Origin: an uncultured Mycoplasmatota bacterium
GTDB taxonomy: Bacteria; Bacillota_I; Bacilli_A; RF39; UBA660
Reading direction: 5' to 3'
NCBI GenBank assembly: GCA_947166445.1
Contig: CAMVED010000005.1
Span: 1 to 63,527 of the forward strand
Length of the DNA stretch: 63,527 nt
Shown: positions 29,833 to 37,221 of the stretch, in pieces
How positions within the stretch are numbered: the first letter of the stretch is position 1
Layout: each line of letters starts with the position of its first letter
Made by a program: the position numbers and the translations under genes
The notes under the pieces: generated by a model
What the model was told of the DNA's origin: nothing
The model's database searches: none
The model's input: only the letters and a program-made list of their open reading frames with translations

Positions 29833-29995
29833 AACAAAAAAAGGATAACACTTAAGGAGTGCTAAAAAGCACGGTGCCATCCTTTATTTTACTTAATTTG
29901 ATAACGGTTTATACCGGAGCAAATGCCCTTCTTAAAGAGTAGATTCACAAAAATTATTTATATCAGTTTTCACCAAACACTGACTCTCTACAATA
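29833..29995 (-). promoter_or_regulatory. T-box riboswitch, serine specifier
   Basis: Minus strand: AGAGA..GGTGAAA stem I, GAA-UCU-A specifier (Ser), T-box AAGGATGGCACCGTG, then a terminator hairpin and U-run. Confidence 0.85.
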
Positions 29996-30069
29996 AACTT
30001 TTCTTTATTACTTGTCTCTTATTTGAATTTCTAAGGTTATTTTAACAAATTATTTTTATTTTGTAAATG

Positions 30070-31830: not shown

Positions 31831-32307
31831 TTAAATAAAGGTAAACTCTGCATATGCTGAAATACCTCCTAAAGCATTGATATCTTCTTGACTTATATTA
31901 AGAACTATTTTATATGTACTATCCTCATTTGAATTAATAGTTGTTTTAAATAAAACACCTTCTTCTTTTACTATACCTTGTTTTACTATAGTATTATTTT
32001 TTAATATAGTGTAATTCATATAATTGTACGGATAAGCTTCATTAGTATTATTTAGTACAAATGATACATCTTGTTTTTTATGAGAAACATTTCTTATTTG
32101 TACACTGTGTTCTTCTTTTAAACCTGAACTTTTATCAATTTTATTATCTAATTCCGCTACTGTAAAACCTGGCATGTTATTAATAATAGCATTTGCCTCA
32201 TTGTAACTTGCTTTAACATTATTTCTTATCATAGAGAAAAATACTACAAAAACTATTACTAGGATAATTCTACATACCCTATACATTATCTCATTTTTCA
32301 TTTCCAA
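31831..32307 (-). CDS. Hypothetical exported protein
   Basis: N-terminal TM/signal, beta-rich remainder. Confidence 0.55.
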   Translation of the reverse strand: MEMKNEIMYRVCRIILVIVFVVFFSMIRNNVKASYNEANAIINNMPGFTVAELDNKIDKSSGLKEEHSVQIRNVSHKKQDVSFVLNNTNEAYPYNYMNYTILKNNTIVKQGIVKEEGVLFKTTINSNEDSTYKIVLNISQEDINALGGISAYAEFTFI

Positions 32308-32378
32308 AACCCCTCTTAAAAATGTGGCATTATTATAACATATTTTTGGGAAAATGTCAATGATCAGGGCATTTTAAA

Positions 32379-32406
32379 CAAAAAAGCAACCAATTAATGA
32401 TTGCTT
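32379..32406 (-). terminator. Intrinsic terminator closing the peptide-rSAM-PqqD-aspS-aspS operon
   Basis: Minus strand AAGCAA...TTGCTT hairpin followed by a T-run, just past the second aspS stop. Confidence 0.6.
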
Positions 32407-32420
32407 CTAATTTTTTATAA

Positions 32421-33734
32421 TTAAAGTTTTAATTTTCTTGATGGCCCTCTATATATAAAGTTTGTATCCATAATATTATCTATTTCTAAAGTTTTCATAA
32501 GTACTCTAGATAGTCCAAGGCCATAACCACCATGTGGTGGACATCCATACTTGAATAGTTCTAAATATGCTTTTAATTCATCTGGATTAATTCCTTTTTC
32601 AAGTACTTGATTTAATAATTTGTCATAGTTATGTTCCCTTAATGCACCAGTTGTTATTTCTAGACCGCGATATAATAAATCATAGCTCTTAGTATTACCA
32701 TTTTCATCTACCTGTTGATAGAATGCTCTTGATTCAAACGGAAATCCTTCTATAAATATAAAATCTGATTTAAAACATTCCAATGCATATTTGCCTAATA
32801 ATAATTCTTCTTTCCTATCAAAATCTGTTTTTCTTTCTCCAACATAATTGTATCTATTCTTTAATATTTGTTTAGCTTCAAAAAAAGTTATTCTTGGTAT
32901 AGTTGCATCTATATTAACCAATTTACTATTAAAATCATTTTTTATCATGTTGCCATATTTACTATTGAGCTTTTCAAAGCCATATTTCAAAAATTCTTCT
33001 TCAAAGTCTTCAATTTTTGAAATATTTTCTATCCATGATATTTCTACATCACACATATTAATTTCTGAAGCATGATAACTTGTATTTGATTTTTCGGCTC
33101 TGAAAGCTGGACCAATTTCAAATACTTTGTCAAATCCTGATGCCATTGCCATTTGTTTATAGAATTGCGGACTTTGTGCTAATGCTGCTTCTTGTCCAAA
33201 AAAATCTATTTTAAATACTTCACTACCGCTTTCTGCAGCTTTGGCAGTTATTTTTGGTGAATGTAATTCTATGAAATCATTTTTTATACAATACTGTCTA
33301 AGAGCATTTTCAAAATATGTTTCGATTTGGAATAATTTATAATTTTTCTCAGATCGCAAATCTAGATTTCTATAATCATGTCTAACACTTCTGCTTATAT
33401 TTTTTTCTTTATAATTTAATGGTAACTCCTCGGCTATTGATGTTACATTTATTTTAGTTGGAATAATTTCCATTCCATTTAGTTTTACATTTGGAGCTTC
33501 ATTTAATACACCTTCAATATTTACTGTACTATCAAGTGATAATGTTTTTACTGTTTCATTTAATTCCTTATTATTATCGTTTTTTTCAATGGTAACTTGT
33601 ACTTTTCCGGTATGATCTCTTAGTATCAAAAATTGAACATATTTCAAATCCTTTATATTATCTACAAAACCTGATACAGTAATTTTTTTATCTTTATATT
33701 TATTTAATTCATTCATGTATATTTTATTATTCAT
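32421..33734 (-). CDS. Divergent short-type (archaeal/AspRS2-like) aspartyl-tRNA synthetase paralog
   Basis: OB-fold LRDHTGKVQ, AQSPQFYKQ, FRAEKSNTSYH, GALREH, YGCPPHGGYGLGLSR. Confidence 0.85.
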   Translation of the reverse strand: MNNKIYMNELNKYKDKKITVSGFVDNIKDLKYVQFLILRDHTGKVQVTIEKNDNNKELNETVKTLSLDSTVNIEGVLNEAPNVKLNGMEIIPTKINVTSIAEELPLNYKEKNISRSVRHDYRNLDLRSEKNYKLFQIETYFENALRQYCIKNDFIELHSPKITAKAAESGSEVFKIDFFGQEAALAQSPQFYKQMAMASGFDKVFEIGPAFRAEKSNTSYHASEINMCDVEISWIENISKIEDFEEEFLKYGFEKLNSKYGNMIKNDFNSKLVNIDATIPRITFFEAKQILKNRYNYVGERKTDFDRKEELLLGKYALECFKSDFIFIEGFPFESRAFYQQVDENGNTKSYDLLYRGLEITTGALREHNYDKLLNQVLEKGINPDELKAYLELFKYGCPPHGGYGLGLSRVLMKTLEIDNIMDTNFIYRGPSRKLKL

Positions 33735-33757
33735 TTTACTTTCCCCCTAATAATTTA

Positions 33758-35074
33758 CTATGGTTCTATTCTGTTTGGACCTCTGAATAGTAGCATTGTT
33801 TCTTTTAAGCTCGGAAGACCTAGTAGTAACATGGTTAATCTATCAACTCCTATTGCAAATCCTCCATGTGGTGGACATCCATATTTAAAGAAGTCTAAAT
33901 AGAAATCTACGTCTTTTCCCAAACCTTTTTCTTTTGCTTGAGCTTTTAATATTTCATATCTATGTTCTCTTTGTGCTCCAGTTGTTATTTCAGTACCTCT
34001 CCAGATTAGGTCATATCCATTTGGAATACCATTTTCATCTCTCATATGATAGAATGCTCTTTTTTTGCTGCTAAAACCTGTTATAAATATAAATTCATGG
34101 CCATATTCTTCCATGGCATATTTAGATATTAATGATTCTGTTTCATTGTTCATATCTCCTACATCTTCTTCAGGAATCTTATATCCATATCTTTTATTTA
34201 GTTCTTGGTATACATCATTTAAATCCATTCTAGGAAAAGGTTTTGAAGGTACTATTACTTCTTTACCAAATATTTCTTTTATAGTTTCTCCATATTTTTC
34301 TTTTACCTTTGTAAGACCTGCAATTAAAAGATCTTCTTCTACATTCATTACGTCTTCAACACTATCAACATAAGCAAATTCTAGGTCAAATGATGTATAT
34401 TCAGTAGCATGGCGATAAGTATTAGATTTTTCTGCTCTAAATACTGGTCCTACTTCAAACACTTTATCAAGTCCACTTGCTAATACCATTTGTTTATAAA
34501 ATTGTGGTGATTGAGCTAAATAAGCACTTCTTTCAAAATACTTAACTTCAAAAACTTCGCTACCTGATTCTGAAGCAGCTGCTATTAGTTTCGGACTATG
34601 TATTTCACAAAAATTATTTTTATATAAATAATCTCTCATTCCTTCAGTCATACAGGATTCAATTTGTCTAATAAGCATATTCCTTTCATTTCTAATATCT
34701 AAGAAACGGTAATCAAGTCTTGTATCAATGTTAACCCCATCTAAATTATTATAGTCATATGGAAGTTCTTCTGCTTGTGATAAAACTTTTACTTCTTCTG
34801 GAATAATTTCTATTCCTCCAAGTTTTACTGCTTCGTTTTTTGAAACAGTACCATTTACTTCTACAACTGAATCTTTAGTTACTTTTTGGAACAATTCAAT
34901 CATTTCAGCATTTTTTTCTTCACTTTTTTCTAGTGTTAATTGAACTTTTCCTGTTGAGTCTCTTAGCACTACAAACATTACCCATTTTTTATCTCTTACT
35001 GTGTCTACAAAACCACTCATTACTACTTCTTTTCCAAGATGCTTTTCTAATTCATTTACAAATACTTTCTTCAT
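33758..35074 (-). CDS. aspS: Short-type (archaeal/AspRS2-like) aspartate--tRNA ligase
   Basis: LRDSTGKVQ, AQSPQFYKQ, FRAEKSNTYRH, GAQREH, YGCPPHGGFAIGVDR: all canonical. Confidence 0.93.
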   Translation of the reverse strand: MKKVFVNELEKHLGKEVVMSGFVDTVRDKKWVMFVVLRDSTGKVQLTLEKSEEKNAEMIELFQKVTKDSVVEVNGTVSKNEAVKLGGIEIIPEEVKVLSQAEELPYDYNNLDGVNIDTRLDYRFLDIRNERNMLIRQIESCMTEGMRDYLYKNNFCEIHSPKLIAAASESGSEVFEVKYFERSAYLAQSPQFYKQMVLASGLDKVFEVGPVFRAEKSNTYRHATEYTSFDLEFAYVDSVEDVMNVEEDLLIAGLTKVKEKYGETIKEIFGKEVIVPSKPFPRMDLNDVYQELNKRYGYKIPEEDVGDMNNETESLISKYAMEEYGHEFIFITGFSSKKRAFYHMRDENGIPNGYDLIWRGTEITTGAQREHRYEILKAQAKEKGLGKDVDFYLDFFKYGCPPHGGFAIGVDRLTMLLLGLPSLKETMLLFRGPNRIEP

Positions 35075-35145
35075 ATTATTAACTCCTTTTTAATACATGT
35101 TTTTTTTATTTTATATTTTTTTTAAGTTTAAATCAATATTAATAA

Positions 35146-35406
35146 TTAAAATTCTTCAAAGATTCCGCATATTTTCATTTTTTCATAGAACTCTGTAACA
35201 TCTTTTTCAACTATTGATTTTTCAACATTGTACATTTTAGAAACGTCATTAATCAATGCTTCAAGAGTGTCACACTTTTTTGATTCATCAAGTATATTTT
35301 TTCCTATTTCATTAATTGTTATTATCTTTGAGTATGGCGTCATTGTAATATATTCATCATCTGATTCTTTTCTAATCCTTAAAAGTTTTGTTTTATACTT
35401 TTTCAC
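35146..35406 (-). CDS. PqqD family RiPP recognition element (RRE)
   Basis: 86 aa; INEIGKNIL...Y.V....EKDVTEFYEKM..CG winged-helix pattern; GTG start 7 nt after GAGGTG, overlapping the rSAM end. Confidence 0.82.
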   Translation of the reverse strand: MKKYKTKLLRIRKESDDEYITMTPYSKIITINEIGKNILDESKKCDTLEALINDVSKMYNVEKSIVEKDVTEFYEKMKICGIFEEF

Positions 35407-36406
35407 AGCTCATCACCTCATCTAAAATCTCATCATATGAGAAATCACAATTACGAGTTTCCTTGCATCCAGAATGGCAACGCTCAAATAAGTCACATGT
35501 TTTACATTTATCTGGTAACCATTTCATACTTCTGTATTCCATTAGCATTTCATCATTATTCCATACTTCTTCTAAATTATTTTTAAAAATATTACCTAGT
35601 TTTTTGTAAGTATATGAACACGGTTGAATATTACCATCGCAATCAATACTTATATAATTTTGTCCAAATCCACAATTACCAACATACTTTAAGTGTTTTG
35701 GATTTTCTACAATACACAATGGAAAATGTATGGCATATTTAAATGTTGTATCCTTATATTTGCTAGCTAGATAATCTATATCTTTTAACGTATTATTAAT
35801 TTGCTCGACAGATAGTTTTAAACTATCACTTATTTTTTTAGGCAACTCTGGATTTGAAATATATCTATTAAATGCAAATGCTTTTATTTCATACTTATCT
35901 TTTAAATCTTCTACAAATTCTTTAATATCAGTATAATTGTTTGCAGTAACTGTCATGTTTATAGTTAATGGTATTTTTAATTTGTTAATTTTTTCAATGG
36001 TATTCCTTATAATTTGATATTGTTTTTCATTAGATCTCGTTAATCTACAATGGCTGGCCATTGATCCATGTATTGATACAGCAATTCCATCTAAAGTATT
36101 AGCAAAATCAGTAAACTCTTTACGCCAAATCATACCGTTTGTTATAAGTGTTGTAAAAAATTCTTTATTTTTAGCATATCTAACAAGTCCAACTATATCA
36201 TTATATACTAATGGCTCTCCTCCAAAAAAGTTTATTCTCAAAACATTATTATCATATAATGTATCTATTATATTTTTTAATCTCTCAGCACTAACATCTT
36301 TTATTTTTTTATTGCTCATGTGCTCTACCCCGCAAAAAATACAATTACCATTGCAGTTTCTAGTCACAATAAAATTGGCAGTAATTGGTGTTTTATAATA
36401 CTTCAT
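35393..36406 (-). CDS. Radical SAM / SPASM-domain peptide maturase
   Basis: CNGNCIFC (CX3CX2C), GGEP, TNG; SPASM CGFG..IDCDGNIQPC..CKTC..FERCHSGC; SD AAGGAGG. Confidence 0.92.
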   Translation of the reverse strand: MKYYKTPITANFIVTRNCNGNCIFCGVEHMSNKKIKDVSAERLKNIIDTLYDNNVLRINFFGGEPLVYNDIVGLVRYAKNKEFFTTLITNGMIWRKEFTDFANTLDGIAVSIHGSMASHCRLTRSNEKQYQIIRNTIEKINKLKIPLTINMTVTANNYTDIKEFVEDLKDKYEIKAFAFNRYISNPELPKKISDSLKLSVEQINNTLKDIDYLASKYKDTTFKYAIHFPLCIVENPKHLKYVGNCGFGQNYISIDCDGNIQPCSYTYKKLGNIFKNNLEEVWNNDEMLMEYRSMKWLPDKCKTCDLFERCHSGCKETRNCDFSYDEILDEVMSCEKV

Positions 36407-36425
36407 AATTACCTCCTTTTTAGTA

Positions 36426-36455
36426 TCAATAGAGTGTTAAAAAACACTCTATTGA
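36426..36455 (-). other. Perfect 13-bp stem-loop between precursor and rSAM (no U-tail)
   Basis: TCAATAGAGTGTT-aaaa-AACACTCTATTGA. Confidence 0.8.
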
Positions 36456-36562
36456 CATGGTGGATCACAAGAAAACGCAACGATTTCTTTTTCGTTTTCT
36501 TTTGAAATTTTGATAGCTTTATTTCCTTGTTTTAGCTCAGCTGTTGGCTTTTCCCATTTCAT
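36449..36562 (-). CDS. Putative RiPP precursor peptide, 37 aa (MKWEKPTAELKQGNKAIKISKENEKEIVAFSCDPPCQ)
   Basis: Hand translation; SD AAAGGAG 8 nt before ATG; WxxP leader motif; Cys-containing C-terminal core; directly upstream of rSAM+RRE; absent from the ORF track. Confidence 0.82.
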   Translation of the reverse strand: MKWEKPTAELKQGNKAIKISKENEKEIVAFSCDPPCQ

Positions 36563-36709
36563 TTTCACCACTCCTTTCAAATTTTAGTTTTTTAATGAGA
36601 TCCCTATAAACTCAATTTTTTACAAAGAATAAAAAAAGGCGAAAGCATAATAAAGCCATGATATATAAGCCTTAAAACTCTCTCACCTCTCTTTTAAATA
36701 ATTGTCATT

Positions 36710-36738
36710 AATATACACCTAAACTATTATCCTGTCAA
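36710..36738 (-). promoter_or_regulatory. SigmaA-type promoter for the RiPP/aspS operon
   Basis: TTGACA-17 nt-TATATT on the minus strand. Confidence 0.7.
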
Positions 36739-36774
36739 TAATCACTATTGCTATTTTAAACAAAAAAGAAACTT

Positions 36775-37221
36775 TTATTTAGTTCCTGTTGAGCCAAATC
36801 CTCCAGTTCCTCTTTGAGTATCAGACAATTCTTCTACTTCTAGAAATTCTGCTTTATAAAATGGCATTATTACCATTTGAGCGATTCTTTCTCCATTTGA
36901 TATAGTTTGATCTATATTTGAGTGATTATGTAGTGCTACCATTACTTCTCCTCTGTAATCAGAATCAACTACTCCAACTTTATTAGCAGGAGCAAGTCCT
37001 TTTTTTGTAGCTAATCCACTTCTAGCAAATATCATTCCAGCATAACCTTCAGGTATTTCCATAGATAGTCCTGTTTTTACCAGGAACGTTTCATGTGGTT
37101 TTATAATTATATCTTCATCAAGGATAGCATATAAATCAAAACCTGCAGCACACGCTGAACCATAACTTGGTATTGTTGCTCTTTCATCTAATTTTTTTAT
37201 TCTTACTTGTCCACCTAGCAT
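36775..37221 (-). CDS. dut: dUTP diphosphatase
   Basis: AGFDL, RSGLA, GVVDSDYRGE, ERIAQ, RGTGGFGSTG; start at MLGGQ after GGAGG. Confidence 0.95.
   Translation of the reverse strand: MLGGQVRIKKLDERATIPSYGSACAAGFDLYAILDEDIIIKPHETFLVKTGLSMEIPEGYAGMIFARSGLATKKGLAPANKVGVVDSDYRGEVMVALHNHSNIDQTISNGERIAQMVIMPFYKAEFLEVEELSDTQRGTGGFGSTGTK

Follow-up and report, generated by a model that had tools for sequence, protein, structure and literature searches.

A rare radical-SAM peptide cassette that travels with archaeal-type aspartyl-tRNA synthetase genes, and a possible role of these synthetases in immunity

Why should the genes for a modified peptide be joined to two genes for the same essential enzyme? 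This question is raised by a five-gene unit on contig CAMVED010000005.1 of assembly GCA_947166445.1, from an uncultured Mycoplasmatota bacterium, which was analysed as one stretch of 63,527 nucleotides (the window, to which all coordinates given without a locus label refer). The open reading frame (ORF) list, domain scans and the sequence itself placed all elements of the 4.3-kb unit, from promoter to terminator, on the minus strand: a precursor peptide of 37 amino acids (36449–36562), a predicted radical S-adenosylmethionine (rSAM)/SPASM peptide maturase (35393–36406), a PqqD-type leader-recognition protein (35146–35406) and two archaeal-type aspartyl-tRNA synthetases (AspRS), AspRS2-A (33758–35074) and AspRS2-B (32421–33734). 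A preliminary description of this DNA had read the same series of promoter, 37-residue peptide, stem-loop, rSAM/SPASM, PqqD, two synthetases and terminator, and each element was found where it had been placed. We consider it quite possible, though short of probable, that the peptide targets AspRS and that the linked synthetases confer immunity by target replacement. This is suggested by the linkage of aspS to the peptide cassette, which arose independently in two lineages and involves another type of AspRS in each, by the substitution of the unit for the housekeeping aspS, by private changes in active-site motifs of the linked AspRS2-A and by the immunity-like partners (ABC transporter, GNAT) of cassettes that lack aspS. 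The mobility of the whole unit, the loss of a T-box, the rarity of tandem AspRS2 genes, the invariant Asp of the peptide core and the parallel between the gene set of the family and the cluster for microcin C, whose target is AspRS (PMC7136475), point in the same direction. Among the three mechanisms put forward in the preliminary description, inhibition of AspRS by the product together with one resistant copy was the best supported, by four sequence-based lines, although both the inhibition and the resistance are inferred.

In the mechanism that we propose, the PqqD-type protein would bind the leader of the 37-residue precursor, and the SPASM enzyme would cross-link its invariant C-terminal core, presumably by a thioether between Cys36 and Asp33. 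AspRS would be inhibited either by the mature peptide itself or by a fragment with Asp that is set free in the target cell. The linked synthetases would be insensitive, AspRS2-A with Val197 and Lys216 and AspRS2-B with a lysine at the position equivalent to the latter, and would assume the housekeeping role of a displaced, T-box-controlled aspS. Toxin and resistant target would travel jointly, displacing the sensitive allele. The most complete version of this proposal, in which an rSAM peptide with an Asp–Cys thioether warhead inhibits AspRS, is packaged from promoter to terminator with insensitive AspRS2 genes and spreads among gut bacteria by swapping sensitive aspS genes behind a T-box, is possible but on the doubtful side.

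The source assembly, designated G000, is a metagenome-assembled genome (MAG) of 755 kb in 18 contigs with 27% GC and an estimated completeness of 53%. For comparison, 401 genomes of the ~1-Mb class were surveyed across the order and 60 relatives, 16 of them from the same genus, were scanned for the rSAM protein; loci are labelled L0xx and genomes G0xx, and G007 is the closest relative of G000. The complete five-gene unit is carried by G000 and by loci L066–L069. Locus L030 combines the cassette (rSAM protein 81% identical) with a single AspRS2, an orthologue of copy A (92% identical), in the slot between dut and a gene for a 158-residue protein. In L032–L034, where the DNA has 39.5% GC and the rSAM protein is 47% identical, the cassette lies directly downstream of a bacterial-type aspS of 597 codons (696 bits), and the GTG start codon of the precursor overlaps the aspS stop codon. 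It had been stated beforehand that a general lack of aspS at homologous loci would speak against a functional connection. Most loci indeed carry no aspS, but two independent linkages lie far above chance: the probability of finding two among about nine context types was roughly estimated at ~1e-4, and it is very unlikely that two independent operon-level linkages to one essential gene family arose by chance.

The position of the unit in closely related genomes argued for replacement. The flanks of the unit in L066 are 99.1% (7657 bp) and 98.9% (4983 bp) identical to genome G002, which assigns both to the same species. At this position, slot A, G002 contains a T-box (136.6 bits) and a bacterial aspS, together 2008 bp, and L066 carries its unit of 4371 bp in exactly this place; G002 has this one bacterial aspS and no AspRS2. 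Slot B, from dut to the gene for the 158-residue protein, is occupied by a bacterial aspS in G007 and by the unit in G000 and L030, and slot A of G000 contains a tRNA-Lys gene only. No bacterial aspS was found in the 53%-complete G000 assembly or at any of three syntenic slots, the third being that of G010 and G011. A bacterial-type aspS was present in 15 of 15 same-genus genomes searched and asnS in 14 of these 15; AspRS2 and the rSAM protein were absent from all 16 same-genus genomes. By this comparison, the five-gene unit evidently replaces the housekeeping aspS rather than supplementing it. The duplicated target of the preliminary description would therefore be better described as a replaced one, and the two AspRS2 copies are no recent duplicates of each other. 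The further question raised there, whether the genome holds another aspS or gatCAB, received a divided answer, with no bacterial aspS in the assembly and gatCAB at C2:76184–79314.

The unit is 92.9% identical between G000 and L066 over 4333 bp (window 36723–32401) and the flanks are 76–80% identical, a difference which points to a recent interspecies transfer. As the stretch of high identity opens at the promoter and closes at the terminator of the unit, the unit was apparently moved as a whole. L030 diverges evenly from G000, with 83% identity in the cassette and 81–87% in the flanks, a pattern that looks like vertical descent. In G002, slot B (L023, G002:C10, 7684–10698) is occupied by another nrdD together with a small ORF and nrdG, which marks this slot as a general hotspot for promoter-to-terminator cargo.

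These observations can also be read without any toxin. A mobile cassette for a peptide that is made on ribosomes and modified after translation (RiPP) may have inserted before AspRS2-A, displaced its T-box and travelled since then with an aspS locus that is often exchanged. In this case both synthetases could be housekeeping enzymes, one serving tRNA-Asp and the other, non-discriminating, feeding GatCAB, and the target or role of the peptide would be unrelated. We take such hitch-hiking seriously and rate it as possible, if rather doubtful. AspRS2 occurs in 166 of the 401 genomes of the order (41%), patchily and as the sole AspRS, and within the genus aspS is found at varying positions. Orthologues of copy A without a cassette, P0035 in L076 (90% identical) and P0037 in L077 (86%), are single genes behind an Asp T-box of 134 bits in slot A/C. 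Their nucleotide homology with G000 begins at the ATG, which indicates that the cassette occupies the former place of the T-box. Homologous Asp T-boxes of 134–137 bits (L028 10096–10305, L076 5113–5322, L077 6757–6966) precede a bacterial aspS in G002 and AspRS2 in L076 and L077; as one kind of T-box stands before either type of enzyme, AspRS types were apparently swapped in situ behind it, also without a cassette. Hitch-hiking would likewise fit the lack of an aminoacyl-tRNA synthetase near most cassettes, and a promoter-like site within the unit could express the aspS2 genes independently of the peptide genes. It has to put the overlap of aspS and the precursor gene in the L032-type operon down to coincidence, and it leaves unexplained both the restriction of Val197 and Lys216 to linked copies and the occurrence of tandem AspRS2 genes solely with the cassette.

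AspRS2-A (438 residues) and AspRS2-B (437 residues) both exceed the cut-off of 353 bits of the AspRS2 model NF003483, with 472 and 435 bits, respectively. Both contain the OB anticodon-binding (PF01336) and the class IIb catalytic (PF00152) domains, and each aligns end to end with the structure of the AspRS of Thermococcus kodakarensis. They are 46% identical to one another and belong to different AspRS2 clades: copy A has hundreds of homologues at 71–92% identity, and copy B is 59–83% identical to enzymes from other Bacilli and Mollicutes MAGs, close AspRS2 homologues being publicly labelled as MAGs of a 'Bacilli bacterium' or a 'Mollicutes bacterium'. The initial distinction between a canonical and a divergent AspRS was thus misleading, as both copies fall into large clades of housekeeping enzymes. 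A recent tandem duplication was rejected, given the 46% identity and the closer relation of each copy to enzymes of other genomes, and a degeneration of copy B was rejected since most of its odd residues are common to a subclade of about 15 clusters. Two AspRS2 genes were found in just two of the 401 genomes, in tandem in G000 and with the second copy beyond 8–9 kb in G095.

The three linked A proteins group as a single clade within the free ones, and about ten substitutions were assigned to the stem of this clade. One of them, A197V (QSPQFYKQM-V), lies three residues past the Lys of QSPQFYKQ, and another, N216K (FRAE-K), directly follows the Arg-x-Glu of motif 2. Val197 and Lys216 are present in all three linked copies, and Ala and Asn in all 119 other homologues. 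A cassette-free context was checked for two of these 119 (P0035 and P0037), and for the others it was presumed in view of the small size of the rSAM family. Copy B carries a Lys at the position equivalent to 216, a residue shared by 13 of 15 members of the B subclade (67–83% identity); the exceptions are the two closest relatives of B (82–83%). At the positions of Trp26 and Lys85 of the T. kodakarensis enzyme, which are known determinants of its tRNA discrimination, A and B are identical, with Asp and Lys.

A need for Asp-tRNA(Asn) could provide a role for one of the copies. The asnS gene was absent from the G000 assembly, which is 53% complete, and from its syntenic place at C6:1–3108, outside the window, next to C6:3108–3833, the orthologue of which it adjoins in G002 and G007; together with the presence of gatCAB this favours hitch-hiking, and one AspRS2 copy may supply Asp-tRNA(Asn) in G000. 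The G002 reference, which represents the species of the two-copy unit L066, has asnS, so that this need gives no obvious reason for copy B there. In G007, a second, divergent bacterial-type aspS (QAPQQFKQ, FRDEDAR) was observed directly downstream of an extra gatC/gatA/gatB-like set (L024, G007:C6, 5972–11005). This island, which looks like a transamidation operon with a non-discriminating AspRS, is absent from G000.

Cassettes without a synthetase provided a second view on the function of the peptide. The minimal unit of precursor, rSAM protein and PqqD occurs alone in L031, L035/L036 and L070–L072 and has mobile or defence-rich surroundings in L037. On the small plasmids L038/L039 it is accompanied by a divergent GNAT, and in L040/L041 and L073–L075 by an ABC ATPase and an ABC-2 permease; the contigs of L073–L075 also hold the plasmid replication and mobilisation genes Rep3 and MobA. 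A remnant on plasmid pCt2 comprises PqqD, an ABC ATPase and a GNAT together with an rSAM protein devoid of its N-terminal half, and it has no precursor. The ABC ATPases of L040, L073 and pCt2 are ~49% identical to one another, and the GNATs of L038 (5662–6126) and pCt2 (L144 8825–9292), two unrelated plasmids, are homologous (35% identity, E = 2e-25). From their sequences, these transporter and GNAT partners look like immunity or export genes. In L032 (9673–12665) and L037 (8405–10998), whose rSAM proteins are 57% identical, the cassette is neighboured by a helix-turn-helix (HTH) protein of 364–380 residues and a Rel/SpoT-like protein in which only the HD hydrolase and TGS domains were recognised. 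The HTH/Rel pair is oppositely oriented in the two loci; it may connect the cassette with the stringent response or with the detection of uncharged tRNA.

As the same core and the same enzymes occur without a synthetase in at least seven contexts, AspRS does not appear to be required for maturation of the peptide and would hence be no tailoring enzyme for it. This disfavours the second mechanism of the preliminary description, in which one AspRS2 activates Asp or supplies Asp-tRNA for modification of the peptide. Paralogues of aminoacyl-tRNA synthetases and aminoacyl-tRNA-dependent enzymes are known from natural-product pathways (PMC12945691), and copy B is the more divergent of the pair; still, we consider a biosynthetic role very improbable. 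A and B keep full anticodon-binding and catalytic domains in addition to exceeding the AspRS2 cut-off, L030 has copy A alone, whose near relatives are housekeeping enzymes, and the unit contains no transferase that would use Asp-tRNA.

Several points weigh against AspRS as the target of the peptide. The majority of the family loci carry no synthetase, and the G000 unit has no exporter. Switching between AspRS types is common in the order without a cassette; the occurrence of AspRS2 in 166 of 401 genomes and the T-box shared by either type imply that no toxin is needed to explain the replacement of aspS. Ordinary enzymes under T-box control are the closest relatives of copy A, at 86–90% identity. 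The substitutions Val197 and Lys216 are suggestive only: in other lineages, too, about 6% of private changes fall on columns with a conservation of at least 97%, so that P is about 0.1 for two out of ten, and both positions vary in archaeal and eukaryotic AspRS. Moreover, the proposal offers no reason for copy B, which may just supply Asp-tRNA(Asn), as asnS is absent from its syntenic place.

Precursor, rSAM protein and PqqD together appear to constitute a rare and apparently undescribed RiPP family. The precursor ORF of the window, MKWEKPTAELKQGNKAIKISKENEKEIVAFSCDPPCQ, is preceded by an AAAGGAG Shine-Dalgarno sequence and encodes a variable leader followed by the C-terminal core CDPPCQ. Residues C32, D33, P34, P35 and C36 are invariant in 11 precursor loci, in which the leaders are divergent and the next residue is usually Q. 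A profile search of 1.84 billion proteins returned 16 representatives of short-peptide clusters, all of which keep DPPC. In precursor P0290 the first core Cys is changed to Gly (GDPPCQ), in the distant locus L042 with actinobacterial GC content the core reads ADQPCQGA, and in plasmid L074 it reads TDHPC; on the basis of these variants, the constant core feature across the family is apparently D-x-P-C. Only in L074, with its run of six A, is the plasmid precursor MKKYSKPSIKTNGKNVKNTDHPC (L073 1585–1660, with the equivalent position in L074 and L075) in frame; L073 and L075 have five A and a frameshift, which reflects either homopolymer phase variation or an assembly error. The 43-residue translation of the precursor ORF gave no match in NCBIfam, and a full-text search for 'CDPPC' yielded no paper on such a RiPP.

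The rSAM protein (337 residues) matches PF04055 (Radical_SAM, E = 5.6e-21) and PF13186 (SPASM, E = 4.7e-11), and its gene overlaps by 14 nt with that of the PqqD-type protein (86 residues; PF05402, E = 8.4e-8). It reached none of the NCBIfam family cut-offs, with the highest scores for PqqE (105 bits), MftC (91 bits) and PapB (85 bits). Cys18, Cys22 and Cys25 of the CX3CX2C cluster motif are invariant in 17 members of the rSAM family, as are the SPASM cysteines 231, 245, 263, 301, 304, 310 and 314 with the spacing C-x12-G-x4-C and C-x2-C-x5-C-x3-C. The locus thus has the features of a radical-SAM/SPASM RiPP maturase system, namely the cluster motif, a SPASM domain with seven Cys, a PqqD/RiPP recognition element and an adjacent precursor. 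All readable loci of the family have a small ORF before the rSAM gene, and PqqD comes after this gene wherever the locus extends far enough; in L040 PqqD is fused to the rSAM protein. The rSAM family comprises 33 homologous clusters in 5.8 billion proteins, from metagenomes only, and the one cluster with a source name bears the generic JGI label 'PqqE'. No homologue was found in the 60 relatives, including the 16 from the same genus. One distant member (L042, 40% identical) was returned by a scan of GTDB genomes and two further short contigs by a scan of JGI metagenomes. Viral contigs contained no member of the family, with all matches at or below 31% identity, and the sole match among PLSDB plasmids was the truncated remnant on pCt2 of Clostridium taeniosporum.

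Which modification could such an enzyme introduce? NxxcB forms a beta-thioether in an N-x-x-C motif and accepts Asp as acceptor (PMC9389541), and PapB joins Cys to Asp or Glu (PMC9413430). The rSAM-SPASM protein of the window resembles both in that its predicted substrate is a short core at the C-terminus in which an acidic or amide residue is followed, three residues on, by a Cys. As the spacing of the core equals that of the NxxcB motif and Cys–Asp chemistry is known from PapB, the modification most likely to be expected is a thioether between the sulfur of Cys36 and the beta-carbon of Asp33, closing a D-x-x-C ring. The resemblance to PapB has limits, since the rSAM protein scored 85 bits against a cut-off of 340 for NF047865; PapB acts on repeated C-x3-D/E motifs, whereas the precursor described here has a single D-P-P-C(-Q) core, PqqD is a separate protein and the chemistry is predicted by analogy. 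PqqA/PqqD/PqqE and MftA/MftB/MftC have the same layout, in which a short precursor bears its core at the C-terminus and is accompanied by a separate chaperone of the PqqD type and an rSAM-SPASM protein of ~340 residues, and the best PDB match was 6c8v (E = 2.6e-23). With 104.8 bits for TIGR02109 (PqqE, cut-off 381) and 90.9 bits for TIGR03962 (MftC, cut-off 265) the protein is nevertheless assigned to neither family, the core contains neither the Glu/Tyr nor the Val-Tyr pair, and no other pqq (pqqB/C) or mft genes are present. The CDPPCQ-core family, which lies outside all NCBIfam models, appears to represent a new and testable RiPP family. The statement that this architecture is uncharacterised held up, as no searchable paper or curated family model describes it.

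A peptide directed against AspRS would not be without precedent. Microcin C, a peptide of ribosomal origin, inhibits AspRS once it has been processed, and its gene set provides an exporter as well as MccE, a GNAT domain for immunity (PMC7136475). Members of the CDPPCQ family are likewise partnered by ABC transporters, GNATs or AspRS genes. The two systems differ in that microcin C needs an adenylyltransferase of the MccB/ThiF type, which is missing among the ORFs of the unit, and no nucleotide moiety is predicted; in that its precursor ends in Asn and that of the window in Gln; and in that mcc clusters are not known to carry an AspRS gene, the AspRS target of the unit being only inferred. Antibiotic clusters with a resistant synthetase are known for albomycin (SerRS, PMC9032320) and obafluorin (ThrRS, bioRxiv 10.1101/704981). 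As in these clusters and in that for mupirocin (IleRS), the synthetase is embedded in the unit, and the changes of linked copy A at otherwise conserved positions of active-site motifs may be of a similar kind. The pathways for mupirocin, albomycin and obafluorin make small molecules and add a copy beside the sensitive gene, whereas the unit replaces the gene, has two copies and specifies an rSAM RiPP. A further trait of self-resistance clusters, a gene of the target family that is embedded in the unit and inherited with it, was found here and again in the independent aspS–cassette operon of L032–L034.

If AspRS is indeed the target, the replacing unit would be a new variant of the theme in which a cluster carries its resistant target, known for small-molecule inhibitors of aminoacyl-tRNA synthetases (PMC9032320), with microcin C as the known AspRS-directed RiPP (PMC7136475). 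It would specify the first rSAM RiPP aimed at an aminoacyl-tRNA synthetase, a second and chemically unrelated RiPP route to AspRS after microcin C, and a hitherto unknown determinant of resistance from nature. A toxin would then have driven the exchange of a housekeeping gene in natural populations, with an essential allele being displaced among members of one species. Should peptide and synthetases prove functionally unconnected, the locus would remain a record of clean swaps of bacterial and archaeal AspRS behind one T-box in gut Bacillota of ~1 Mb.

How is the unit expressed? A promoter, P1 (TTGACA-17-TATATT, 36710–36738), agrees with the consensus at 11 of 12 positions and is kept in L066 and in L030, two other copies of the unit. 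It is followed by a hairpin with a run of seven U that resembles a terminator (36622–36694, -26.2 kcal/mol, z -4.7), an element overlooked in the preliminary description, as was a promoter-like site in the gap between PqqD and aspS. The 13-bp lower stem of this leader hairpin is kept in G000, L066 and L030, with four pairs changed on both sides, and the hairpin is absent from the aspS-free cassettes L031 and L070; its combination with the U-run suggests a possible attenuator. Viewed as a whole, the strong A-tract/hairpin/U7 element that begins within ~10 nt of P1 (36622–36738) resembles a bidirectional terminator, shows compensatory changes and is conserved only in aspS-linked units. Its role could be that of an attenuator, or it could represent a small RNA of its own, ~80 nt long. 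A box downstream, TTGAGTTTATAGGGATCTCAT (36595–36615), is nearly identical in G000, L066 and L030 and aligns with the promoter region of the cassettes L031 and L070, which makes it a candidate remnant promoter or operator. A second hairpin spans the stop codon of the precursor (36424–36457); it has a 15-bp stem, -19.6 kcal/mol, z -7.8 and no U-run, and none of 200 shuffled sequences folded equally well.

The gap of 71 nt between PqqD and AspRS2-A proved AT-rich and unstructured and, as had been described, free of a terminator. It contains the promoter-like site TTGATT-17-TAAAAT (35108–35136), both hexamers of which are conserved in G000, L066 and L030 despite changes in the spacer. In view of this site, a single transcript of the peptide genes and the aspS pair is possible but not required. 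A gap of 23 nt separates the two AspRS2 genes. An Rfam search of 32300–36800 with E values up to 5 found no T-box in the unit, nor any other known RNA, the sole match in the leader being a meaningless microRNA model (E = 0.44). In the same window, T-boxes were found before tyrS (107 bits) and before the DUF1653-serS operon (29852–30027); the latter scored 86 bits, under the Rfam gathering score of 93, and is therefore missed by a default Rfam scan. These results agree with the T-box assignments made earlier. The unit accordingly differs from T-box-controlled aminoacyl-tRNA synthetase operons, to which the cassette-free orthologues of copy A, with their T-box, correspond.

The loss of the T-box suggests a third alternative, in which the product acts inside the cell: the peptide, or the leader with the cassette, might have replaced the T-box as regulator of the expression or activity of AspRS2 in the producer, or the peptide might give rise to a cofactor in the manner of pyrroloquinoline quinone (PQQ) or mycofactocin. 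The cassette lies exactly at the former T-box site, the terminator-like leader is conserved in aspS-linked units and not in other cassettes, and the rSAM protein has its best matches, by HMM and in the PDB, in PqqE and MftC. The lack of an exporter from the G000 unit, which contains no gene for an exporter or a protease, as already stated in the preliminary description, would also be in agreement with such a role. We nevertheless regard an intracellular or regulatory function as improbable, and the third mechanism of the preliminary description, an action of the peptide on AspRS within the cell, found no support. Plasmid-borne members of the family carry dedicated ABC transporters, as expected for a secreted product, accessory genes of the PqqB/C or Mft type are missing, and in many genomes the cassette lies far from any aspS.

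The unit is closed by an intrinsic terminator (32382–32408) with an 11-bp stem and a U-run (-12.5 kcal/mol, z -4.3). Just downstream, a perfect extended -10 promoter with 12 of 12 consensus positions (TTGACA-17-TATAAT with TG, 32332–32360) drives the gene for the 158-residue membrane protein. The 16-nt sequence CTTTTTTGTTTAAAAT and a following ATTGACA occur at both ends of the unit, and these repeats may be a trace of its insertion.

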